Assembly: GCA_018883165.1 (NCBI GenBank)
Contig: VEQN01000001.1
Span: 21,949-85,948, forward strand
Source: Candidatus Tayloriibacteriota bacterium
GTDB lineage: Bacteria; Patescibacteriota; Minisyncoccia; Phycocordibacterales; CAIZLB01
Length of the DNA stretch: 64,000 nucleotides
Reading direction: 5' to 3'
Shown here: piece after piece, positions 11,934-61,327 of the stretch
Layout of the letters: each line of letters starts with the position of its first letter
How positions within the stretch are numbered: position 1 is the first letter of the stretch
Program-made: the position numbers and the translations under genes
The notes under the pieces: model-generated
Database searches by the model: none
Told to the model about the DNA's origin: nothing
What the model saw: the letters and a program-made list of their open reading frames with translations, nothing else

Positions 11934-12443
11934 TTGGTATACAAAAAGATGCTAGAATGCCTTTACAAGGTCTCACCCTACATTGTTCCAGACCAGGGAA
12001 CAACAGCAGTCATTAAGAGACCGAGACACATCAAAATCCATATGAAATATCTATATCACGGATCAACAACACAAAACATCAAAACACTAGAACCAAGAAA
12101 ACGATATACACCTCAAGGTAAGATAGATTACTCTGCCATCTACGCAAAACCCTTACCCGCTTATGCAGCAGCTCATTCCTTCCCTTGGTCAACAGATGAA
12201 GGTGTCGGATTAGATGTGGAAGAACACGGTGTCGACTTGTCGATTCCCAATAGCTTAAAGGAACGATTACAAGTACCTGTTTCTATATATAAACTAGCAC
12301 CTGACAGTTTCGAACACACTGAAGAGGAGCTGACAGGGTATACCTGGCATACAACAAAACCGATTGAGATTCTCGAGGAGGTTAAGTATCCTTCGGTTGA
12401 AGTCGCTCTGAAAGAGCTAGGTGCTAAGTTGACTTATTTTTAA
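11934..12443 (+). CDS. Hypothetical protein (169 aa).
   Basis: Clean ORF 25 nt after the previous gene. No motif recognised. Confidence 0.45.
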   Translation: MVYKKMLECLYKVSPYIVPDQGTTAVIKRPRHIKIHMKYLYHGSTTQNIKTLEPRKRYTPQGKIDYSAIYAKPLPAYAAAHSFPWSTDEGVGLDVEEHGVDLSIPNSLKERLQVPVSIYKLAPDSFEHTEEELTGYTWHTTKPIEILEEVKYPSVEVALKELGAKLTYF

Positions 12444-12630
12444 TATGCAAATGAAATGATAGTCTCAACCGACGATAATGCACGTAAATTTACTCTAGAG
12501 CACATTAGTTCTTAATTTCTTGATTCTAATCACAGTCTCACGAATATTACGGACACAACATCGGAGCAAAGCTTTAAACTATCAACTAGCAAGCTCTTTA
12601 ATTTTCAGGAGTAACAAATCAATGTATCAC

Positions 12631-13779
12631 CTACCTGTTCAACATCGCTCTTGTTGCTGGACCAACATTTCCAAGTTGAGAAATATTCTTTGCTTTCTGA
12701 TATTTCTGTACCGCCACTTTTGTTTGAGGACCGAAATTTCCATTAGCTGGTCCAGTGAAAAAACCTTCCTCTTTCAATCGTTTCTGTAGTTCAGTAACAT
12801 CAACACCTTTTGATCCCACTGAAAGATTTTTAGTAAATTGAAACTTCTGTACGGGTTTTGGAGTTGAAACAACCGGAGATGTATTTCCTGTTGATGATGT
12901 CACGGTCACATTCACTTTTGCAGTTGAGACCTGATTGTACATATCAACTGAAGTGACTGTAATTGTATGCTGTCCGACATCCTGCCTTGTTGGCACCCAT
13001 GTGAATCGGTTTCCATTGAATGTACCCGAATCAATTGTGTTACCACGCATTGAACCAGATACTCTGTATGTTGGTGACGAAATACCATACGGCTTAACTA
13101 TGAATGTTAGTGCATTACCAAATGGTAATGTTGTATTTGATACATCTTCGATCCTAATTCCTTGCACCACAATTGTTTGATATACCGTGTCGTTTCTTCC
13201 ATTCGCCCCAGTCACCCTCACAGTGAGGCTATGACTGCCCACATCCCTCTCTGTCGGTGTCCAACCGAAATTTCCATCAGAACTCATATTCCTACTTGTT
13301 ACAGTGCTGCCGTAGAAAGAATCGGATACAGAAAATTGTGGATTCACATACCCCAGAGCACTTACACTAAATGATACGTTTTTGTCTGGAAACACATGTG
13401 ATCCAGGGGTAAATGATTTGATTGAGACGACACCTGGTTCCCTAACCACAAGTGTTTGATTCACAGTCGCTTTATATCCCGTTGAATCTGTTGCAGTAAT
13501 CGTAATATTATGTGTACCGACATCAGCATATTGTGGAGTCCAATTAAACTCTCCAAACTTATTTATATGTGCATTTGAAAGTGTACTTCCCGGAAACGAA
13601 TCACTTACCGTGTATGCCATGGTACCTGTAAATCCTGAAGGTTCAACTTTAAAGGTGATGGTTGTAAATGACGCAACATCAGCATTTGGAGTAATGATAC
13701 CGATTGAAAGTGATGCGGCATATGTTGGGCATACAAAAGTAGAAAATGCTAATGAAAATATAATGAGGAATGTACGCAT
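12631..13779 (-). CDS. Secreted surface protein: signal peptide, three tandem Ig-like repeats, C-terminal peptidoglycan-binding (PG_binding_1-like) domain.
   Basis: Signal peptide MRTFLIIFSLAFSTFVCPTYAAS. Repeats F[NGT]W[TV]PT..DVG.H.[IL]T[IV] occur three times, about 90 aa apart. The C-terminus LSVGSKGVDVTELQKRLKEEGFFTGPANGNFGPQTKVAVQKYQ matches the peptidoglycan-binding fold. Confidence 0.65.
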   Translation of the reverse strand: MRTFLIIFSLAFSTFVCPTYAASLSIGIITPNADVASFTTITFKVEPSGFTGTMAYTVSDSFPGSTLSNAHINKFGEFNWTPQYADVGTHNITITATDSTGYKATVNQTLVVREPGVVSIKSFTPGSHVFPDKNVSFSVSALGYVNPQFSVSDSFYGSTVTSRNMSSDGNFGWTPTERDVGSHSLTVRVTGANGRNDTVYQTIVVQGIRIEDVSNTTLPFGNALTFIVKPYGISSPTYRVSGSMRGNTIDSGTFNGNRFTWVPTRQDVGQHTITVTSVDMYNQVSTAKVNVTVTSSTGNTSPVVSTPKPVQKFQFTKNLSVGSKGVDVTELQKRLKEEGFFTGPANGNFGPQTKVAVQKYQKAKNISQLGNVGPATRAMLNR

Positions 13780-14943: not shown

Positions 14944-15657
14944 ATGATACTCACCAAGAAGTTCGCACTCACATGGAAAAAACTGATCGAGGGCGCAGCG
15001 CAAGGAAAGTGCTGCAGATTCAAACGTGTGCTTTTCGAAGTTCCTGAAGGCTACCTCACTGGATCATCAACAGAAGATCCTCACACCCTGGCCTTTGCTG
15101 GACTCTCACAAAAAGCACTACACGGATACAGAAAAAGACTCGAATATGACGATGTAACGTATATCCATGCCAACTGCCTACATCTCAACGCGATTGCTGG
15201 AGGCTTGGTACTTGGGACCAGAAATACCAAGTGGATGACTCCCGATGACGACGTGTTCGTTCTACCAGGCGGCTTCTGGTACGTGAGAGCAGATGTCTAT
15301 GCGAGCACAGACGAACCTGGGGATGTCTCATTCACTTGGGCACAGACGCTCTGTGAGATTCTTTCTGGCCAATCACAGATTGAAGTCAGTGGTGGAATCC
15401 AGATGGCTTCCCCACCTGGAGACAAACCATTTAGGATCAGGCTTAAAGCGAGTAACCGTGACGACAAGAAGTTGCTTCAAATGAAAGTGCTCTTCGACAT
15501 AATCAAAGGTTCCAAACACCCATACCACGCCAAGGTTATGGCAACCTTGATTCACGTCATGCACATACTCATCATGGCTCATGAGGAGCTCCCCAAAAGA
15601 GCAAACCTTGTGAGCATCGGAATCAACGATGGCTACATTACGGGCAACATAAATTGA
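14944..15657 (+). CDS. Hypothetical protein (237 aa).
   Basis: Long ORF divergent from dnaX. No motif recognised. About 47% GC, similar to the core genes. Confidence 0.45.
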   Translation: MILTKKFALTWKKLIEGAAQGKCCRFKRVLFEVPEGYLTGSSTEDPHTLAFAGLSQKALHGYRKRLEYDDVTYIHANCLHLNAIAGGLVLGTRNTKWMTPDDDVFVLPGGFWYVRADVYASTDEPGDVSFTWAQTLCEILSGQSQIEVSGGIQMASPPGDKPFRIRLKASNRDDKKLLQMKVLFDIIKGSKHPYHAKVMATLIHVMHILIMAHEELPKRANLVSIGINDGYITGNIN

Positions 15658-29973: not shown

Positions 29974-30582
29974 ATGATATGTATTGACAATCTGTCTTTC
30001 AATTGTATTATATTAGGCAGTTCTTTCACACAAACCCCACACACTAACACGCATATGAAATTCCACTTGATTGAAACCCTTGAGTTTGATATCCGCCCTA
30101 AAAAATTTAAGCCCGGTAGACACTTTGGCGAAGGATGGGCACTTAGCCAAACAACAACCGGTCTCACACAAAAACCTGTTGAAGAGGAACTGGCACTGTT
30201 TTTCAAAAGAATAGCCGCCGCCTCAAAACTACCTACCGCTCAAGGGAGAAAAGCTCTCTTCACCAACGCCCTTACGGATGCTGAGGAAAGTACCAAGTAC
30301 ACCGACGCCATCAGCAGGCTGAGTAACGACCTTCTCGGGAGCCCACACTTGCTATGGACTCTCCTCATGGAGAAGGACACGAAACTCCTCAATCATATTG
30401 AAGGAAAGTATGGTGTCGATTTCATCGTGTCATTCGGGAAGATGATTCAACATTCGGGCGATCCAAGACAGCATTATGTCCTCTGGGCCGCCAAAGCGAA
30501 GAATAGACCTGGATGGACCTGGGGCAAGTTTGATGTTAAAGGCAGCAGCGTACTGCAAAATACATCCATCTTGATTCTTTGA
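29974..30582 (+). CDS. Hypothetical protein. The true start may be MKFHLIETLEF at about 30055.
   Basis: ORF with its own downstream hairpin. No motif recognised. Confidence 0.4.
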   Translation: MICIDNLSFNCIILGSSFTQTPHTNTHMKFHLIETLEFDIRPKKFKPGRHFGEGWALSQTTTGLTQKPVEEELALFFKRIAAASKLPTAQGRKALFTNALTDAEESTKYTDAISRLSNDLLGSPHLLWTLLMEKDTKLLNHIEGKYGVDFIVSFGKMIQHSGDPRQHYVLWAAKAKNRPGWTWGKFDVKGSSVLQNTSILIL

Positions 30583-46480: not shown

Positions 46481-46488
46481 TGTTTTTG

Positions 46489-47924: not shown

Positions 47925-49427
47925 CTATATTGAAACAGTCTTTGTAATACCAACCTTCTCCACGAATTTTTTGTCGTGGCTCACCAATATCACAGTTCCT
48001 GAGAATTCTAGAATTGCCTGTTCAAGCGCCTCTACCGCTTCTATATCAAGATGGTTTGTCGGCTCATCAAGAACGATACAATTCGGCTTCATGAGATACA
48101 TGAGTGCAAGTTGAAATCTTGAACGTTCACCTGAACTTAGATCTGTCACATGCTTTTTTGCATCTGCATCATCAAATCCAAATCTTTTAAGTGTCATACG
48201 GAAGTTTCCCTCGCTCTCATTGTCACGTACAACATCAAATACACTACAAATTACATCAATGATATCTTTGTGATTGCCAAAGCTTTCTAACACCTTCTCT
48301 TGTGGTAGATACCCAATATGCATGTTACTACCCAACACAACCTTACCTTTGATTGGTTTGATCTCACCTAATATTGCTTTTACAATTGTTGATTTACCAG
48401 AACCATTCTTTCCTTGTATGTGTACTTTTTGACCATACGAAATATCAATATTAAATGGACCAATGCTTTGTGTTGAATCATATGCAAAATATGCATCTTC
48501 TATCATGCACACCTTTTCACCTGATCTTTGAGTAACTTCAAACGTTAATCGGATTGGAAGTTTTACCACTGGCTTTTCAACACTTCTCTCTTCAATCTGC
48601 CGACCCAGTCTGTCACGTACCACTTTTGCACGAGTACCCATTCTCCCTTCTTTGTCTCTAAGGTACGCAGCTGCCGGTTTTTCTTTCTCACCAGGATCAA
48701 GCTTTCTGTTGTTTGCCCGTGTTCGTTCGATTTTTCTCTGCCACTCCTCTTTTCGATGAACATCTTTTTGTAGACGCTTTACTTCTTCCTGTTGCAGTTC
48801 ATAGTCTTTCCACTGATCTTCAATTTCTTTTTTCTTAATTTCTCGATATTCAGAATATGTACAGGTATACACCTTTACCGTTCGGGTATATTCATCAATT
48901 TCATATATCTTGTTTGATACCGCATCAAGAAATGTACGATCATGCGATACCACTACAAGTGCGGACTTTTTCGGTAGAGACGATATCTCATCTTGAAGCC
49001 AAGAAAGTCCATCAGCATCCAGATTGTTTGTCGGCTCATCAAATACATACAATGTGCGGTGTACATCTACACCACTATCCTTCTGTGCAAATATTTCAGA
49101 AAGTATTCTTTTTGTTTTTTCACCACCTGAAAGGTTGCCCACTTCTTCACCTGGAATCTGAGGTACATACTGTATGTTCAAATCATCACTCATATCCACT
49201 GATCCGGAGATGAGTTCAAGTTCATCATTTTTTTGTGCAATATATTTCAGTAAACTAGACTTTCCTGCTCCGTTTGCACCCACGAGTGCAATCCGATCCC
49301 CTGACATGATATTAAATTCAATATGTGACAACACATCAAAAACTCCATAGCGAAATGAGGCATCTTTGAAGTGTACGAGCATGTTGTCTTTCTTGGACAT
49401 ATGCATAAGTATACACGATGTTGACAT
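47925..49427 (-). CDS. ABC-F family ATPase: two ABC domains, no TM domain (EttA/Uup-like translation factor).
   Basis: Two Walker A motifs GANGAGKSSLLKYI and GKNGSGKSTIVKAI. Two LSGGE/LSSGE signatures. Two Walker B/D-loops DEPTNNLD and DEPTNHLD. A charged linker lies between the domains. Confidence 0.8.
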   Translation of the reverse strand: MSTSCILMHMSKKDNMLVHFKDASFRYGVFDVLSHIEFNIMSGDRIALVGANGAGKSSLLKYIAQKNDELELISGSVDMSDDLNIQYVPQIPGEEVGNLSGGEKTKRILSEIFAQKDSGVDVHRTLYVFDEPTNNLDADGLSWLQDEISSLPKKSALVVVSHDRTFLDAVSNKIYEIDEYTRTVKVYTCTYSEYREIKKKEIEDQWKDYELQQEEVKRLQKDVHRKEEWQRKIERTRANNRKLDPGEKEKPAAAYLRDKEGRMGTRAKVVRDRLGRQIEERSVEKPVVKLPIRLTFEVTQRSGEKVCMIEDAYFAYDSTQSIGPFNIDISYGQKVHIQGKNGSGKSTIVKAILGEIKPIKGKVVLGSNMHIGYLPQEKVLESFGNHKDIIDVICSVFDVVRDNESEGNFRMTLKRFGFDDADAKKHVTDLSSGERSRFQLALMYLMKPNCIVLDEPTNHLDIEAVEALEQAILEFSGTVILVSHDKKFVEKVGITKTVSI

Positions 49428-49581
49428 ACCAGAAACTTACTGTACTATTTTGCAGAAAAAAGCTCTTTACATATTCAAGGTGAAATATCTGTGCATCTAC
49501 TAGGTGTGTGGGTGTTTCACCTTGAAGCATACCGTAGTCTTGGTCTGTTAAATGTGAAAGAAAACCAAACACGTTCTACCC

Positions 49582-50979
49582 ATGACACACCCATCCCTAC
49601 CACCCAAACCACATCCACAACTCTTCCGTTCAGGATTCCTCTCCGCTTGGTTCCAGACACCACCCGGAACAAGCAGCGAGATGTTTACCCATAAGCCGTC
49701 GCGGGCATCTCTTACTGCTGCGCGCTGGCACATCGAATATGCAAAAAAGCACGGTATCCAGACCATTGAATTGGCTGGGGCTCATACCAAACGCACCGCA
49801 AATGTCAATCCGGAAAAACTCGCAGACCCGGTTGCAGCACACTGCGACATGGAGACCACCAGCGACGGAGAAGGCACAGACATGAGCGACGACTTCATCA
49901 AGCGGCTGAAAGATGCCGCTGATGGCAAAGTCACTATCGGCACACTCGGAACATTCGAAAATGCTCTGCATCTCGACCTCGGTGCCCGACGCCAAAACAT
50001 CATGCACTTCCGGCGCGCAATTCGAGCTGTGGCGCGGATGAAAGCACTCGGTCTCGGAACTGAAGGGGTCACGATCTTTGTTGGCCGAGACGTCACAAAA
50101 TCAGTGGCAGAGAACCTGCGGCTGTTCGCCAAGGTCCTCATTCCTATCGCACTGTATGCAAAAAGCCTGGGCGTCAAGATCTTCATCGAGAACTGCCCGA
50201 TGTGCGGATGGAGTGAGACCCACGAGGTCTTCATCCAAAACATCGCGAATAACGTGGAGCACTGGATCGTCATGGCGCGCACCATCGAAGAAGCTGGCCT
50301 GAAAGGCTGGGTCTTCATCAACTATGATGCAAGTCACGACATCCTCCAGTTTACTCGCCCAGAGTGGGTGTTCCAAATCCTTAAGCGTGCGGGCTACGCT
50401 TGGATCATTGGCCGATTCCACGGCAAAGACTTGTCGCGAATGTCTGGTTACACAGCAGCGGCGACTTCTCTTGGCTCACGAATCCGTGGACCCTGGGAAA
50501 AGATGTCTGGTGATCAACCCCTACCGGGCGCGACACACCACAACCCCCTCGCCATTGCAAATGGTCAACAAGTGGACTGGTTTGGATTCTGTGTCCATGC
50601 AATCACAAGCCTTGGCTGTGCATCAGACCCAAACAACCTGATGACATTCACCACCGAATGTGAGCACGGCGCACTCCGATACTGGAAAAACTTCCTCGTG
50701 CCCGGAACCACAGACAAGTGGGACCAAGAACGACACGCGGAAGTCGCAGGTGCGGTTCTTGCCTCATCTATCCAATACATCCAGCATCAAGGATGTGCTG
50801 CGCTCCAACACACCTACATGCGAGATGTTCTTGCCCAAGTCCCCGGGTCAATCTGGTCATATCAACCACTCGACCCAAACAACTTGGAACTCCTACCTGG
50901 GGTTGATGACTGCATCAGTCGTGCGAAAGAATTCGAAATTGGTCCAATCAACATGACCGAAGAGGTCGTCATTGAATAA
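49582..50979 (+). CDS. Divergent xylose-isomerase-family TIM-barrel protein with a Pro-rich N-terminal extension. Compositional outlier.
   Basis: GTEGVTIFVGRDV resembles the XylA FWGGREG block. IGRFHGKD resembles the XylA FHD.D metal motif. KIFIENCP resembles the XylA EPKP block. 60-nt hand counts give about 50-55% G+C, with frequent CTG/CGC/GCG codons, versus about 37-48% in the flanks. Confidence 0.45.
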   Translation: MTHPSLPPKPHPQLFRSGFLSAWFQTPPGTSSEMFTHKPSRASLTAARWHIEYAKKHGIQTIELAGAHTKRTANVNPEKLADPVAAHCDMETTSDGEGTDMSDDFIKRLKDAADGKVTIGTLGTFENALHLDLGARRQNIMHFRRAIRAVARMKALGLGTEGVTIFVGRDVTKSVAENLRLFAKVLIPIALYAKSLGVKIFIENCPMCGWSETHEVFIQNIANNVEHWIVMARTIEEAGLKGWVFINYDASHDILQFTRPEWVFQILKRAGYAWIIGRFHGKDLSRMSGYTAAATSLGSRIRGPWEKMSGDQPLPGATHHNPLAIANGQQVDWFGFCVHAITSLGCASDPNNLMTFTTECEHGALRYWKNFLVPGTTDKWDQERHAEVAGAVLASSIQYIQHQGCAALQHTYMRDVLAQVPGSIWSYQPLDPNNLELLPGVDDCISRAKEFEIGPINMTEEVVIE

Positions 50980-51002
50980 GGCCAAGCCCTGACTACGGAG
51001 AA

Positions 51003-51040
51003 CACCCACAGCCTTTGCAAGCTGTGGGTGTTTTTTCTTT
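51003..51040. terminator. Bidirectional rho-independent terminator shared by the convergent xylose-isomerase-like and lepA genes.
   Basis: cacccacagc-ctttgcaa-gctgtgggtg-tttttt. Confidence 0.6.
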
Positions 51041-51047
51041 TCTCACT

Positions 51048-52973
51048 TTAATTATCCCCACTCTTCATCATCTTCAAGAAGACATCGTGAGGAATATTTA
51101 CATTACCCTTTCCACGTTCTGCCATCTTCTTCTTTCCTTTCTTCTGTTTCTCCAACAACTTCATTTTTCGTGTAATGTCACCACCATAGAGATATCCTGT
51201 AACATCTTTTCGGAGCGCTGAAAGTGTTTCTGATGCAATGATTCTTCCATTTGCACGACCTTGTATTTTTGTAACAAAGAGTTGTCGTGGCAAAATATTT
51301 TTAAGTTTCTCAACTGCCTTTCGTGCCTCATCCTCTACTCTTCTTTGTGCAACAACGCGTGTGAAAGCTTCAACCGGTTCATCTGCAACTAAGATATCCA
51401 ACCGAGTTACATCAGCATCACGCATAGATTCAAATTCATATGACAATGATGCATATCCTGAAGAGATACTCTTCAATTCATCGAAGAAGTTTCTCATGAG
51501 CTCACGAAGTGGCATGTGTATGATGAGCTTTGCTCTTCCGTCACCAAATGAAATTGTGTCTGAAAGCTCAGCTTCATGATCATAGAGTAGTTGATATATT
51601 GGTCCGGTATACAAATCAGGAGTGATGATTGAAAGCTTTACCCAAGGTTCTCTGACCGCTTCAACCTGACCATGATCTGGAAACATCGATGGTGAATATA
51701 TCATCACAGTTCTTCTACCATCTTCATGTGTTTGGATTCTACCCATGTATGTGTTTCCAAGACCATTTGCAGGCAGAATTCCATTTGCAAAACCGACATC
51801 AATTCGATCATTCTGACTTGGTGTTGATTGTCTCTTGAGTGTCACCTCATATGTAATACTTGGTGTTGCAATTACAAGGTTAAGATTAAACTCTCGCTTT
51901 AATCGTTCTGTGATGATTTCAAGGTGAAGAAGTCCAAGGAATCCACATCGGAAACCTCGCCCCAGTGACCCTGATGATTCTTCTTCGTGTGTAAATGCAG
52001 AGTCAGACAATCGTAGTTTTCCAAGTGCTTGTTTAAGGAGTTCGAAATCATCCGCATCTTCTGGGTATACAGATGCCCACACAACCGGTGCCGGACTCAT
52101 ATATCCAGGAAGTTCTGGAAGTTGTTTTCGAAAGAGCGTGATGGTGTCTCCCACTGATGCGATACCTGGTTGTTTGATACCCGTAACAATATATCCAGTC
52201 TGCCCTGCTTCAAGCTTATCAGCTGGCACTTCTTCGGGTGTGAAGATTCCTGTTTCAAGTGCATAGAATTTCTCTCCTGCAATTTTGAAAAGCAATTCAT
52301 CACCTTTTTTAACAGAACCTTCCATTACTCGTACGTATACAATTACACCTTTGTGATTTGAATATTGAAAATCGAATACCAAACCTCTGAAACTTCCTGA
52401 GTTTACAATTTCTTCCTTTGGCTCTGGTACCTTTTTAATTATCTCCTGCAACAATACATCAACACCTTGGCCAGTCTTTCCAGATGTTTCCATGATGTCT
52501 TCTGGGTTACATGACAAAAGCATGACCATTTCTTCCTTGATGTCATCAATTCGTGCAAGTGGTGAATCTACCTTACTTAAAACAGGGATGATGGTAAGAC
52601 CTGCTTCTTGTGCCATATGGAGTGTGGTGAGAGTTTGTGCTTGCACTCCCTGTGTTGCATCAACAAGAAGAATGCACCCTTCCACTGCTTTAAGTGCCCG
52701 TGACACTTCATATGAAAAGTCGATGTGCCCTGGGGTATCGATGAGGTTTAATTCATAGAGCTCACCATCAGTGTTTTTGTAGTGCATCTTTACAGGTCGC
52801 ATCTTGATGGTGATACCCTTTTCACGCTCAAGTTCCATGTTATCAAGAACCTGGTTCATCATCTTTCTCTTTTCAATTGTCTGGGTCAGCTCAAGCATTC
52901 TGTCGGCAAGGGTAGACTTACCGTGGTCAATATGTGCGATGATACTGAAGTTTCTAATTCGTCTAAGTTGCAT
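51048..52973 (-). CDS. lepA: Elongation factor 4 (LepA).
   Basis: IRNFSIIAHIDHGKSTLADRMLE, DTPGHIDF, and the LepA-specific C-terminal domain. Confidence 0.9.
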   Translation of the reverse strand: MQLRRIRNFSIIAHIDHGKSTLADRMLELTQTIEKRKMMNQVLDNMELEREKGITIKMRPVKMHYKNTDGELYELNLIDTPGHIDFSYEVSRALKAVEGCILLVDATQGVQAQTLTTLHMAQEAGLTIIPVLSKVDSPLARIDDIKEEMVMLLSCNPEDIMETSGKTGQGVDVLLQEIIKKVPEPKEEIVNSGSFRGLVFDFQYSNHKGVIVYVRVMEGSVKKGDELLFKIAGEKFYALETGIFTPEEVPADKLEAGQTGYIVTGIKQPGIASVGDTITLFRKQLPELPGYMSPAPVVWASVYPEDADDFELLKQALGKLRLSDSAFTHEEESSGSLGRGFRCGFLGLLHLEIITERLKREFNLNLVIATPSITYEVTLKRQSTPSQNDRIDVGFANGILPANGLGNTYMGRIQTHEDGRRTVMIYSPSMFPDHGQVEAVREPWVKLSIITPDLYTGPIYQLLYDHEAELSDTISFGDGRAKLIIHMPLRELMRNFFDELKSISSGYASLSYEFESMRDADVTRLDILVADEPVEAFTRVVAQRRVEDEARKAVEKLKNILPRQLFVTKIQGRANGRIIASETLSALRKDVTGYLYGGDITRKMKLLEKQKKGKKKMAERGKGNVNIPHDVFLKMMKSGDN

Positions 52974-53078: not shown

Positions 53079-53651
53079 TTGCACTTTCTCATGAAACCCA
53101 CATATACACCACCTGATAACGGCGGATTTATGATCCCCCGTTGTTCCGACAGGGTCATTTTGGCCTTTGTCAATGAAAAAGACCGCTGGGAAATTCTTGG
53201 CGGCGGCGAAGAACCCGAAGACAATGGTGATCTCCTTAACACTGCTATTCGTGAATCGCAAGAAGAAGGAATGCTCACCGTGGAAAGAAATCACGCGCGC
53301 CATGTTGGAAACCTGGTACAGGTCATTCCTGGTACAGGTGGAAAAACTGGCATCGCTGCGGTTTGGAGTACTCAAATCTTTGAGCCCATCTCCGGACTAA
53401 AGTGGAAAGAATTCCAGCTCTTTCGCAAGACAGACCCTGCCTACAACAAAGAGACTGGGGGAGTATCCATGATTCGCCTAAAAGACATCTTCTGTGAAGG
53501 TTCACCGTTTGCCATCCCACTGGGACACAAACGAATGATTCTCCACATGTTGAATGTTGAAACAGACTTCGGCAAACCACTCATTGAAGGAATTCGCCTT
53601 GGTCAACCTGTGACCGCCTTGGTGCCACACCTTGGTATAATCACATGCTGA
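53079..53651 (+). CDS. Nudix-hydrolase-like protein (degenerate Nudix box).
   Basis: WEILGGGEEPEDNGDLLNTAIRESQEEGML approximates GX5EX7REUXEEXGU with a 3-aa insertion. The assignment rests on the motif only. Confidence 0.4.
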   Translation: MHFLMKPTYTPPDNGGFMIPRCSDRVILAFVNEKDRWEILGGGEEPEDNGDLLNTAIRESQEEGMLTVERNHARHVGNLVQVIPGTGGKTGIAAVWSTQIFEPISGLKWKEFQLFRKTDPAYNKETGGVSMIRLKDIFCEGSPFAIPLGHKRMILHMLNVETDFGKPLIEGIRLGQPVTALVPHLGIITC

Positions 53652-59274: not shown

Positions 59275-60303
59275 CTACTTCGTCTCTTCGATTTTCTTCA
59301 GTTTCGCCTGAAGCTCCTCGAAGAAACGATCCTTTGTCTGCACAGCTTCCTTACCTTCAGGGGGATTGGGGTTGTGAACATGTGTATTCTCACCCTCCCG
59401 CGCATGGATGCGCCCAAAGAAACCATTGAGTTGTTTAAGGATGGCAGTGGCACGCCCTGGTGTAATTGTCTTGTCATAGACGCGACGGAACACAAAAGCG
59501 ATTCCTTTCCTGAACGGATCAGGTTTGCCATCTGGACCAAACTGGGTAAACAAATGTTGCTGCTTGTTTTCAACAGTTGCCAGATAATACGCGAGCTCGC
59601 GCTCATACCAACCTGGCTGACTGATGACATCTTCAACATGCTTCCCCAGTTGAACATATCCTTCACGGTGTGTCTTTGGCATGAAAGCAAAGAGCAGATC
59701 GAACTGCTGAGTGATTTCATACACCAATGCATCCTGATGCTTCTCATCCTTCAAGAGTTCAATCTGTGGGATGTTAGCAAACACCCAGAATGGAACCCCT
59801 TTGGTGATTTCATCGAATGCAGACTTCCGTTTTTCCAAGTCAGCATCTGTTGCATTTTTCAAAGTGACATTCGTCACCTGATCAATGCGGGTACTCACCG
59901 ACTTTCGGGATTCCTCAATGAGCGGGTCATAGAAGTTTCCGCGACCAAGGACGCCGTAGGCGGTGATGATCCGGAGCCAAGACTCATGATCCCACCTGGC
60001 GTATGATGCAGGTTCTGAGACCATCGATGCGGCGTGAGTGGAGAACCATCCACCCCAGATGTCTTTTCGAAACTCCGAAGGCAGATTCAAACTGGAAGGC
60101 ATCCTGGCGATGATGGAAGCCTCCACTGTTGTAAGGTGACTTCCCCATGATGTGTTTCCAAAGTAGGCAGGCGGAGGTGGAACACCTTCGCTTTCAGCCG
60201 CAATGAGGTTAAGGTTGATGTTAAGGCCGATGATGGCCATAAGGCAGGCGCGCAGCAAAACTGCGGACCACGACTGGGTGTGGGTGCTGGTGTTCATTTT
60301 CAA
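59275..60303 (-). CDS. Secreted hypothetical protein (signal peptide), moderately GC-rich.
   Basis: MKMNTSTHTQSWSAVLLRACLMAIIGLNINLNLIAA, a signal peptide. No domain recognised. Local G+C is patchy, about 45-63%. Confidence 0.45.
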   Translation of the reverse strand: MKMNTSTHTQSWSAVLLRACLMAIIGLNINLNLIAAESEGVPPPPAYFGNTSWGSHLTTVEASIIARMPSSLNLPSEFRKDIWGGWFSTHAASMVSEPASYARWDHESWLRIITAYGVLGRGNFYDPLIEESRKSVSTRIDQVTNVTLKNATDADLEKRKSAFDEITKGVPFWVFANIPQIELLKDEKHQDALVYEITQQFDLLFAFMPKTHREGYVQLGKHVEDVISQPGWYERELAYYLATVENKQQHLFTQFGPDGKPDPFRKGIAFVFRRVYDKTITPGRATAILKQLNGFFGRIHAREGENTHVHNPNPPEGKEAVQTKDRFFEELQAKLKKIEETK

Positions 60304-60466: not shown

Positions 60467-61327
60467 TCAAGCACTAGTGGTCTCAGGATAACGGTTCTTG
60501 ATGACCGTTTTCACAGCACCATCCTTGAGGCACACCTCCGTGCCGAAGAGACACACCTTGTGAGCTTTCGGGAGTACCTCCCACAGCGACTCCACAGAAG
60601 AATCCAAATCGCCACCGAATGGTATTTCGAATGGACCACCCCGGAAGGATGGGATGAGCGATTTTTCGTCACTCGGATCTGGCGAGTCTGCTTCATAGGT
60701 TGTCAGGCACAGGCCGACACCTTTGATGAGACCCTCCGCAGGGTACGACCAAAAGGCTCGCTCGACAGGACTGTCAACGCCGGGTTTCGTCCGACGAATA
60801 ATTCCCATCTCGACAGTGTGTTTCCCGCCACTTCGGTGGACAAGACTCGCGACGATGCGCGGAGTCTGATTCAAATCAGGCTCAGGGAGACATGTGCCGA
60901 GAACATTTGCGAGCGTCTTGGTGGCACCATTCTCGACGAGACCGACTGCGAGATCGGTGTGGTCACCATTGCTTGCCACATAGGCGTTGTTACCACAGAA
61001 CACATTTTGACTCCAGGCATTGTAGATGACCAATGATGGGTCATCCTTAGTTTCCTCGGCGAATGCAGTCTTGATGTTCATGTGATTCACAGTCTGAACC
61101 AGCTTGCGGTTCCGAGAGCGTGTACTGCGGCCAGTGATGAAGTACAGGAAACGAATGCCTGTACCACCTTCATTGAGGCCGACTACAAGGCCTCGGCCAG
61201 GGTAATTGCACCCACGCAGAACCTCGAGGTTATGCGGGGCGTCCCCTGGAATGACATTAACACTAATATGTTTTGACTTCACGATGTTAGAGCGGGTTGA
61301 TGTGTTTACAAACAACAAAATCAGCAC
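60467..61327 (-). CDS. Archaeal-type IMP cyclohydrolase (PurO, PF07826-like) homolog, possibly with an N-terminal extension. Compositional outlier.
   Basis: Recalled M. jannaschii PurO blocks align. GRILAVGRNSNGSF matches GRGLVVGLNEGGTG. AVVSNGSHTD matches AYVASNGDHTD. ELNTPRIAAA matches DLNQTPRIVAS. Hand counts give about 53-55% G+C with CGC/CTG codons. Confidence 0.5.
   Translation of the reverse strand: MLILLFVNTSTRSNIVKSKHISVNVIPGDAPHNLEVLRGCNYPGRGLVVGLNEGGTGIRFLYFITGRSTRSRNRKLVQTVNHMNIKTAFAEETKDDPSLVIYNAWSQNVFCGNNAYVASNGDHTDLAVGLVENGATKTLANVLGTCLPEPDLNQTPRIVASLVHRSGGKHTVEMGIIRRTKPGVDSPVERAFWSYPAEGLIKGVGLCLTTYEADSPDPSDEKSLIPSFRGGPFEIPFGGDLDSSVESLWEVLPKAHKVCLFGTEVCLKDGAVKTVIKNRYPETTSA

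Follow-up and report, generated by a model that had tools for sequence, protein, structure and literature searches.

The window analysed here is a stretch of 64,000 nucleotides from a Candidatus Tayloriibacteriota bacterium, and it carries a 465-aa open reading frame (ORF) on the forward strand (49582–50979, ATG start) for a TIM-barrel enzyme of the Pfam family PF01261. The same 465 aa are called by NCBI as MBU3668398.1, labelled 'TIM barrel protein', in a Candidatus Taylorbacteria metagenome-assembled genome (MAG). To its left lies a gene for an ABC-F type ATPase (47925–49427, reverse strand; two Pfam ABC_tran domains and ABC_tran_Xtn), and to its right lies lepA, encoding EF4 (51048–52973, reverse strand). 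The original prediction had described the flanking genes as convergent. Both are on the minus strand, with the ORF divergent from the ABC-F gene and convergent with lepA.

A sigma-70-like promoter (TTGACA-16 nt-TACTAT, 49421–49448, forward strand), which matched at 10 of 12 positions in a scan, reads toward the ORF. It is followed by a predicted 5' leader with a long hairpin (49474–49526, forward strand), which has perfect 12-nt arms and was folded as a continuous stem of ~25 bp (z = -3.1). Between the stop codons of the ORF and lepA lies a strong intrinsic terminator, consisting of a hairpin and a T-run (50997–51036, forward strand). Its perfect arms of 12 nt (51001–51012 and 51021–51032) agree with the perfect terminator that had been noted after the ORF. 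Both window hairpins contain the identical 11-mer TGTGGGTGTTT in their 3' arms. The leader hairpin matched no Rfam family at threshold, and its sub-threshold matches were generic hairpins only. In front of other family members, the same hairpin was not found: those of L116 and L006 are unrelated, and six further loci showed none.

The GC content of the ORF is 0.536 (0.588, 0.442 and 0.577 at the first, second and third codon positions), and it was ranked first among the 43 ORFs of at least 150 aa (z = +3.1), so that the claim of the highest G+C in the window stands. GC3 of the remaining window ORFs is about 0.33 (range ~0.27–0.37), as against 0.577. Profiled in windows of 150 nt, GC climbs at ~49550 from 0.37 to more than 0.50 and drops back at ~50975, so that the limits of the GC-rich stretch agree with those of the ORF. 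The CTG, CGC and GCG codons that had been pointed out are indeed enriched, but they are not the main codons; the main shift is from T to C at third positions, with a C3 of 0.38 compared with 0.15 and no shift toward G in the Lys, Glu and Gln codons. A donor that is uniformly GC-rich would not be expected to leave such a pattern. Five further window ORFs are GC-rich, with GC3 of at least 0.47 (14944–15657, 29974–30582, 53079–53651, 59275–60303 and 60467–61327), and the comparably GC-rich ORFs also resemble variable cargo, not ordinary native genes. When relatives of the GC-rich PurO-like gene of the window were searched for their GC content, only homologs of at most 37% identity were obtained.

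We compared the locus with sister genomes. Two of these, L117 and L118, are collinear with the window from 45.2 to 59.2 kb at 60–94% amino-acid identity. LepA identity to the window is 92% in L117, 90% in L118, 88% in L119 and 87% in L120. L117 and L118 share the promoter, the long leader hairpin and the terminator with the window, and the gene placed between these elements differs in each. Both promoter hexamers are invariant in the alignment, and the promoter belongs to the conserved slot, not to the cargo. In both sisters the leader hairpin has the same architecture (z = -5.0 in each); its basal stem, TTCAAGGTGAAA / TTTCACCTTGAA, is conserved, and its upper stem varies between genomes yet stays paired. 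The terminator has nearly the same stem in L118 and a different, still pairing stem in L117. The TGTGGGTGTTT 11-mer is absent as a common element from the hairpins of these two genomes.

The slot genes of L117 and L118 are likewise PF01261 members (E = 7.7e-10 and E = 6.4e-35, respectively). However, their BLASTP similarity to the window protein was not significant (E = 0.76 for L117 and E = 0.001 for L118), and the two gave E = 0.003 against each other. Aligned along its whole length, the L118 gene is ~55% identical to SCO6571 of Streptomyces (E = 5e-97), and the L117 gene matches the keto-glucal hydratase AtHYD (5e-20). In all three genomes the slot gene has a GC content of 0.52–0.54, compared with 0.34–0.41 in the flanks. 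No TIM-barrel gene was found beside lepA in L119 or L120. The check for presence or absence in sister genomes thus revealed no ortholog at the locus in any of the four.

The borders of the exchanged segment are sharp. BLASTN homology to L117 ends at 49557 and resumes at 51024, and border alignments showed a common 5'UTR up to the ATG and a common 3' flank from ACTACGGAGAAC, so that homology breaks off with the start codon and resumes ~12 nt beyond the stop. Together with the GC step, these data delimit a cargo segment at 49582–50991 (no strand assigned; GC ~0.54) that has no homology to the sisters. Nucleotide identity of the ABC-F gene to L117 falls from ~0.78 to ~0.60 from ~48200 toward the slot, and the ABC-F protein is 67% and 60% identical to those of the sisters, compared with 90–92% for LepA. 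Neither an integrase nor a transposase lies at the borders, and the closest tRNA is at 46488. The only flanking direct repeat is the 11-mer, which is not conserved in the sisters.

In this Taylorbacteria lineage, the interval between the ABC-F gene and lepA is therefore a fixed expression slot, with promoter, leader hairpin and terminator, whose coding content is replaceable. Given that the slot elements are shared while the PF01261 genes differ and have sharp borders, the gene is cargo in this slot. Since the same position is occupied in close relatives by enzymes that share the fold but are unrelated, it is best regarded as a horizontally exchanged gene. This supports the horizontal acquisition put forward in the original prediction, and we found neither many native genes of like composition in the window nor an ortholog in the closest sister genomes. 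The window is a MAG contig and its GC step is abrupt, as would be expected if an error of assembly or binning had joined a GC-rich gene to a low-GC contig. However, a GC-rich PF01261 gene lies at the same position in three independent assemblies, flank homology is unbroken up to the ORF borders, and the ORF forms one uninterrupted stretch with promoter, leader and terminator, so that a chimera is extremely improbable.

Regarding the enzyme itself, the generic PF01261 model (AP_endonuc_2 / xylose isomerase-like TIM barrel) was the only model matched by the protein (42.1 bits against a gathering cut-off of 31.1, E = 1.1e-10, residues 52–269). An NCBIfam scan returned no XylA model at E<=1 and no equivalog. 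In the PDB, phmmer matched no solved XylA chain, and a profile search gave no return, that is, no solved structure detectably related by sequence. The sole phmmer matches, to cytochrome b559 alpha (E ~1e-4, residues 215–281), were treated as spurious because this stretch lies inside the confidently modelled TIM barrel. The label 'xylose isomerase' does not hold on these data. As for the blocks that had been read as XylA-like, FVGRDV (aa 166–171), FIENCP (201–206) and FHGKD (279–283) exist in the ORF and include family-invariant residues in the alignment, but they are not XylA signatures. Structural identity to XylA (EC 5.3.1.5) is 11–13%, and FHGKD is on strand 7, in contrast to the FHD motif of XylA, which is on an N-terminal strand.

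The AF2 model (pLDDT 86, pTM 0.90) has eight strands in a xylose-isomerase-like (beta/alpha)8 barrel. E203, D249, H280 and E359/E361, which are invariant in 14 sequences, are at the ends of the predicted strands 199–203, 244–249, 276–281 and 354–358, and they are candidate metal ligands. H252 and K282 are further invariant residues at strand ends. In a comparison with the XylA ligand set, these positions were the only ones that could be placed from alignment and model. The folds apparently nearest to the model are those of SCO6571 (PDB 2zds) and AtHYD (PDB 8ro4). An hhalign comparison of the window family with the SCO6571-like gene of L118 gave a probability of 93%, pairing IENCP with LEVHP, NYDASH with NYDPSH and FHGKD with VHMKD, a pattern that may reflect a common N-x-D-x-S-H ... 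H-x-K-D framework. Unlike SCO6571 and AtHYD, to which no sequence similarity is detectable, the window protein is ~120 aa longer, and its family is marked by an N-terminal strand of its own, LTAAVQTPPGT, as well as by the motif ENCPMCGW and a tail at the C terminus. The ketose 3-epimerases, IolI, IolE and L-ribulose-5-P 3-epimerase, also of PF01261, are 12–19% identical to it, with ~260–300 aa and none of its extensions.

Based on fold and motifs, the product is probably a divalent-metal-dependent enzyme of the xylose-isomerase-like superfamily that belongs to an uncharacterised family and not to XylA. Given its E...NYDASH...FHGKD...E framework and SCO6571 and AtHYD as apparent nearest structural neighbours, isomerisation, epimerisation or (de)hydration of a keto-sugar is the most likely predicted chemistry. 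The activity of AtHYD as a 2-hydroxy-3-keto-glucal hydratase has itself been described as preliminary (PMC10628242). A partner xylulokinase or sugar transporter had been suggested as a check, and the 18 window ORFs scanned with Pfam included no FGGY kinase or transporter. An operon partner was also rejected, because almost every context has different neighbours: PurB lies beside the gene in L001 and GH130 genes are nearby in L003 and L005, and neither is conserved.

The family is rare, with no characterised member and no sequence-detectable PDB relative. Close homologs of the window protein numbered only 13 among 5.8e9 proteins, and ~31 representatives were obtained at E<1e-30 among 1.84e9 proteins. 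The hosts of clade A are Taylorbacteria, Nomurabacteria, Paceibacterota and 'Patescibacteria group'. In a neighbour-joining tree, the window protein groups with that of L007, its syntenic relative, and with P0001–P0003. Its nearest relatives are P0002 and P0003, at 55% and 50% identity. In L116, whose LepA is 74% identical, a clade-B member lies beside lepA and is 32% identical to the window protein.

We then considered a recent transfer from a higher-GC donor outside the CPR, such as a host bacterium. The atypical composition and the sharp borders at the ORF would fit such a donor. So would the Streptomyces match of the L118 gene, which indicates that slot cargo can belong to families widespread outside the CPR. 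However, the homologs with at least 41% identity and genomic context are all in Patescibacteria or in low-GC Patescibacteria-like contigs; the nearest outside matches, to Thermotogota and Clostridia, are partial (28–44% identity over ~100–200 residues); and no near-identical copy was found among the 5.8e9 proteins. A non-CPR donor is thus very unlikely, and the suggestion that the donor might be a host is not supported. The homolog search gave no donor, the best hit being just 55% identical. In the literature, most of the gene transfer detected in Patescibacteria takes place within the group (PMC12455944).

A different possibility is a native gene, passed on by vertical inheritance, whose C-ending, GC-rich codons are kept by gene-specific selection, such as high expression or an mRNA-level need. 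At each of the 12 loci examined, some of them syntenic between diverged genomes, the family is GC-richer than its flanks, and its GC3 is above that of the host genes in all 12 and ranks first in eight. The position of the gene is conserved in L002, L005 and L047, and lepA is close by in the window as well as in L007 and L116. In L002 and L005 it lies between the same orthologous neighbours, and 4-fold sites are nearly saturated between the syntenic copies. In the window and L005 only NNY codons are shifted, which resembles translational selection. However, G-ending codons are also increased in L045, L006, L002 and L007, and window genes that are likely to be highly expressed (enolase, an RRM protein, FKBP and rpoB/C) have GC3 of only 0.30–0.36. 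Selected mRNA structure showed no excess as a cause of the high GC (mean z of 150-nt windows, -0.67, compared with -0.28 in lepA and -0.33 in the ABC-F gene), and for an overlapping antisense or alternative-frame gene, no open frame was position-conserved across 12 homologs. In addition, the slot holds non-orthologous genes in the closest sisters, and unrelated cargo genes are just as GC-rich. We therefore regard a native gene as rather unlikely. A reading of vertical, non-recent inheritance, based on synteny with L007, L116, L002 and L005, is set aside in view of the much closer sisters L117 and L118.

Given that the family is GC-richer than its flanks at every locus examined, the GC anomaly is a trait of the family and of the cargo genes and no clean time-stamp of one recent event. 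The model of a recent import that is not yet ameliorated fails, in its simple form, to explain the GC-richness in L002 and L005, and the compositional argument for transfer, taken alone, is unsafe. The family is GC-rich in hosts of 35% to 58% GC, and a GC anomaly by itself is a poor transfer clock in such genomes.

The explanation that we favour as probable combines the slot, the metal-dependent PF01261 enzyme and xenologous displacement in situ. DNA of another Patescibacterium, probably GC-richer and with the same slot architecture, would have recombined through the conserved flanks, and we infer that the resident gene was displaced in situ by this step. The high GC would then reflect a foreign gene pool, or recombination itself, and not native composition. 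Exchange of loci through conserved flanks is known from xenologous displacement in situ and from O-antigen or capsule loci, where the JUMPstart leader is conserved. As in such loci, the flanks and the regulatory leader are conserved here, the cargo is non-orthologous and of atypical GC, and the exchange fits homologous recombination within the flanks. Unlike in such loci, just one ORF makes up the cargo, with swap points almost exactly at its start and stop codons, the alternatives all belong to one fold superfamily, and the cargo is GC-richer than the genome, not poorer.

The precision of these borders, within ~12 nt of the ORF ends, could also be explained by a dedicated cassette exchange, in which site-specific recombination at the bracketing hairpins, as in integrons, would take the place of general homologous recombination. 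The slot resembles integron cassettes in its promoterless single-ORF cargo, its resident promoter and its imperfect bounding hairpins. The leader hairpin, with its conserved base and variable top, is like an attC site, and the TGTGGGTGTTT 11-mer is found in both window hairpins. However, no integrase or recombinase was found within ~5 kb on either side, there is no attC consensus, and the hairpin on the 3' side, followed by a T-run, is no more than an ordinary terminator. Moreover, the break lies ~55 nt downstream of the leader hairpin and not at the hairpin base, the 11-mer is not common to the hairpins of L117 or L118, and the divergence of the ABC-F gene, which rises toward the slot, fits an ordinary homologous-recombination tract. 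Cassette exchange of this kind therefore seems quite unlikely.

A more speculative extension, which we consider unlikely, is that Taylorbacteria-like CPR have fixed slots, built from promoter, long leader hairpin and terminator, in which unrelated GC-rich metabolic ORFs are swapped at their boundaries by a dedicated, undescribed mechanism. The lepA slot would then cycle through deeply divergent keto-sugar TIM-barrel enzymes, and the bipA locus would be a second slot. The uniformly high GC of the cargo at any host GC would be a footprint of the exchange, for example of GC-biased repair or conversion.

Returning to the slot beside lepA, the locus is a clean example, resolved to the base pair, in which one promoter, leader and terminator serve different enzymes of the same fold in three relatives. 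The metabolism of CPR/Patescibacteria is minimal, and the locus bears on how their few metabolic enzymes are gained and exchanged. Our observations suggest selection that retains 'some keto-sugar TIM-barrel enzyme' at the slot while the gene itself is replaced laterally.

Beside bipA, we also observed IMP cyclohydrolases that are not homologous to each other, of the PurO type in the window and of the PurH-N type in L117.

The ORF in question (49582-50979, + strand, 465 aa) lies between an ABC-F gene (47925-49427, - strand) on its left and lepA (51048-52973, - strand) on its right, and its product is identical to MBU3668398.1, named 'TIM barrel protein' by NCBI in a Candidatus Taylorbacteria MAG. 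The original prediction placed it between convergent housekeeping genes; however, both neighbors are on the minus strand and are not mutually convergent. The accompanying claim that it has the highest G+C in the window held, as it ranks first among the 43 ORFs of at least 150 aa (z=+3.1). It has a G+C of 0.536 and a GC3 of 0.577, compared with a window mean of about 0.41 and a GC3 of 0.27-0.37 in ordinary genes. The stretch of raised GC, profiled in 150-nt windows, starts at about 49550 and stops at about 50975, coinciding with the ORF. Codon usage is shifted, as had been claimed, but the third-position shift is chiefly from T3 to C3 (0.38 versus 0.15), with no change in favor of G among the Lys, Glu and Gln codons. 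Five further window ORFs have a GC3 of at least 0.47. A promoter-like TTGACA-16-TACTAT site is found upstream (49421-49448), and the terminator predicted after the gene is present at 50997-51036, with perfect 12-nt arms and a T-run.

The label 'xylose isomerase' could not be upheld. The sole Pfam match of the protein was the generic PF01261 (xylose isomerase-like TIM barrel, E=1.1e-10), no XylA model was matched in the NCBIfam scan, and neither phmmer nor the family profile found a significant PDB chain (matches to cytochrome b559 were judged spurious). A partner xylulokinase or transporter had been suggested as a check, and the window ORFs that were scanned yielded neither an FGGY kinase nor a sugar transporter. 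Therefore, the protein is a member of the superfamily and not XylA. The motif blocks quoted in its favor do exist and hold family-invariant residues, but they are not XylA signatures. The residues E203 (IENCP), D249 and H252 (NYDASHD), H280 and K282 (FHGKD), and E359/E361 are invariant in the family and placed at the C-terminal ends of predicted strands; E203, D249, H280 and E359/E361 are candidates for the E-D-H-E metal site usual in the superfamily. Keto-sugar chemistry would be our expectation for this protein.

Closer relatives were obtained by a LepA search (92%, 90%, 88% and 87% identity). Two sister genomes, L117 and L118, are collinear with the window from 45.2 to 59.2 kb, with amino-acid identities of 60-94%. 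In all three, genes for a methyltransferase, FKBP, glutaredoxin, a DivIC-like protein and ABC-F precede the ABC-F/lepA interval (hereafter, the slot), and lepA, a Nudix-like ORF, an ABC ATPase, FtsX, HlyD and bipA follow it. Both sisters carry a GC-rich PF01261 gene in the slot, convergent with lepA (L117, 9991-11193, 400 aa, GC 0.541; L118, 10157-11221, 354 aa, GC 0.523), within flanks of GC 0.34-0.41. BLASTP of the window protein against these two proteins gave E-values of only 0.76 and 0.001, and 0.003 between the sisters, and BLASTN found no homology across window positions 49558-51023. The sister genes are therefore non-orthologous to that of the window, and the presence of such PF01261 genes in the same slot supports the proposal of horizontal acquisition. 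Over its full length, the L118 protein shares about 55% identity with Streptomyces SCO6571 (E=5e-97), and the L117 protein matches AtHYD (5e-20), described as a putative Mn-dependent hydratase of a 3-keto-glycoside pathway (PMC10628242). Profile comparison detected a remote link between the window family and the L118 protein (93% probability), with catalytic motifs aligned. No TIM-barrel gene lies beside lepA in two other genomes, L119 and L120; in L116, whose LepA is 74% identical, a clade-B family member (see below) does.

Border alignments of the window, L117 and L118 were used to define the slot elements. Both promoter hexamers are common to all three, as is the basal stem (TTCAAGGTGAAA / TTTCACCTTGAA) of a long 5'-leader hairpin (window 49474-49526; L117 11259-11297; L118 11298-11351), which thus stands upstream of three unrelated ORFs. 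The top of the hairpin varies in sequence and length with pairing kept (z=-3.1 in the window, -5.05 in L117 and -5.0 in L118). The hairpin has no T-run after it and matched no Rfam family; possible roles are those of an operator, a processing site or a recombination site. All three genomes also share the remaining 5'UTR, which in the window and L117 is homologous as far as the ATG. Downstream of the ORF, homology restarts about 12 nt past the stop codon at ACTACGGAGAAC and continues through the terminator, whose stem is almost the same in L118 as in the window and different, but still paired, in L117. Therefore, judging from these alignments, the exchanged unit is essentially the ORF alone, from 49582 to about 50991. 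The borders showed neither an integrase or transposase nor an adjacent tRNA or conserved direct repeat. An exact 11-mer, TGTGGGTGTTT, occurs at window positions 49507-49517 and 51023-51033, in the 3' arm of both the leader and terminator hairpins, bracketing the cargo, and is not common to the L117 or L118 hairpins. Long hairpins unrelated to this one also precede the family gene, at a distance of 90-110 nt, in L006 (a Nomurabacteria locus; 9864-9914) and in L116 (4430-4479).

The ABC-F protein is 67% and 60% identical to its sister counterparts; apart from the small DivIC-like protein, no other shared gene is nearly as diverged, and the divergence is concentrated near the slot. At the nucleotide level, identity to L117 stays at about 0.8 across all of lepA, up to the slot edge, whereas within ABC-F it declines, from 48200 in the direction of the slot, from about 0.78 to about 0.60. 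Such a fall is the pattern that would be expected of a recombination tract that came in from the left side; alternatively, this part of ABC-F may be under lower constraint. The gene itself has been swapped within the borders described, and xenologous displacement in situ is the most economical reading. We propose that the slot is common to related Patescibacteria, that the PF01261 enzymes occupying it differ deeply from lineage to lineage, and that recombination through the conserved flanks would swap these enzymes. Homologous recombination is the probable mechanism of the displacement. That a single position has three independent occupants from the same fold family cannot be due to chance; either this kind of enzyme is selected for at the slot, or exchange takes place only among genomes that share the slot, and both may apply. 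The host donor suggested in the original prediction is unsupported. In a published analysis, too, most of the transfers detected in Patescibacteria had taken place within that group (PMC12455944). The source was probably a GC-richer Patescibacterial gene pool, and L114 (two adjacent genes, GC 0.60) and L116 (genome GC 0.52) hint that such a pool exists.

We found only 13 close homologs of the window protein among 5.8e9 proteins (44-55% identity), and about 31 family members at E<1e-30 in a profile search of 1.84e9 representatives. A neighbor-joining tree separated clade A (the window, L007, L001, L002/L046, L005, L006, L045 and L114; 41-79% identity) from clade B (L003/L048, L113, L116, L115 and L008; 30-37% identity to the window protein). 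Named clade-A hosts are Taylorbacteria, Nomurabacteria, Paceibacterota and 'Patescibacteria group'. Matches from outside are partial (28-44% identity) and come from Thermotogota, Clostridia and other groups. Neighborhoods vary between lineages, with no conserved partner gene. The generic annotation, the fold and in-situ displacement as an evolutionary pattern are already known. What is new is an uncharacterised family whose close members are confined to Patescibacteria or Patescibacteria-like contigs and for which sequence searches detect no solved structure, an ORF-precise swap beneath a conserved leader, and cargo genes that are uniformly GC-rich.

The family gene exceeded the surrounding ORFs in GC3 in all 12 loci with context, ranking first in eight, second in two and third in two. 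Across these 12 loci, host GC was 0.35-0.58 and family-gene GC 0.43-0.61, with a regression slope of 0.44. In L002 and L005, the gene (61% identical) is flanked by the same orthologous neighbors (64-80%), and its 4-fold sites are near saturation (0.30 identical versus 0.27 expected); nevertheless, both copies keep a GC3 of about 0.57, compared with about 0.39-0.46 in the other ORFs there. Because the GC anomaly persists in this pair despite near-saturated sites, it cannot alone date a transfer. Window genes that are likely to be highly expressed are without this bias. Neither a conserved overlapping ORF nor excess mRNA structure found support as its cause.

Other GC-rich genes were also seen. 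In L001 (5343-11359), which belongs to a 'Patescibacteria group' MAG, two purine genes, PurD and PurB, form gene-sized islands (GC3 about 0.54) with low-GC genes interspersed, and the adjacent TIM-barrel gene is similarly GC-rich, as is L113, a clade-B paralog in the same assembly. L006 has a second strongly GC-rich ORF (12239-13444, 401 aa, GC3 0.65; no Pfam match) two genes from the family gene. In the window, the ORFs at 14944-15657 (+, GC3 0.525) and 29974-30582 (+, GC3 0.493) matched nothing in Pfam or NCBIfam; the former is hypothetical protein FGM57_00185 (NCBI), the sole member of its 90% cluster. The Nudix-like ORF (53079-53651, +, GC 0.48), between lepA and the ABC ATPase, has counterparts of 64% (L117) and 32% (L118) identity, compared with 84-92% for the flanking genes, and its L120 counterpart is annotated as PF00293 NUDIX. 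Beyond bipA lie two GC-rich ORFs (60467-61327 and 59275-60303, both -), one of which is PurO-type IMP cyclohydrolase-like (PF07826, E=1.5e-28, GC 0.525), with all homologs at most 37% identical. Directly beside bipA, L117 has a stand-alone PurH-N-type IMP cyclohydrolase domain (1083-1718; NCBIfam PRK00881, E=2e-29, GC 0.536), and in L119 an RRM gene adjoins bipA. This locus may be a second slot, with analogous, non-homologous enzymes.
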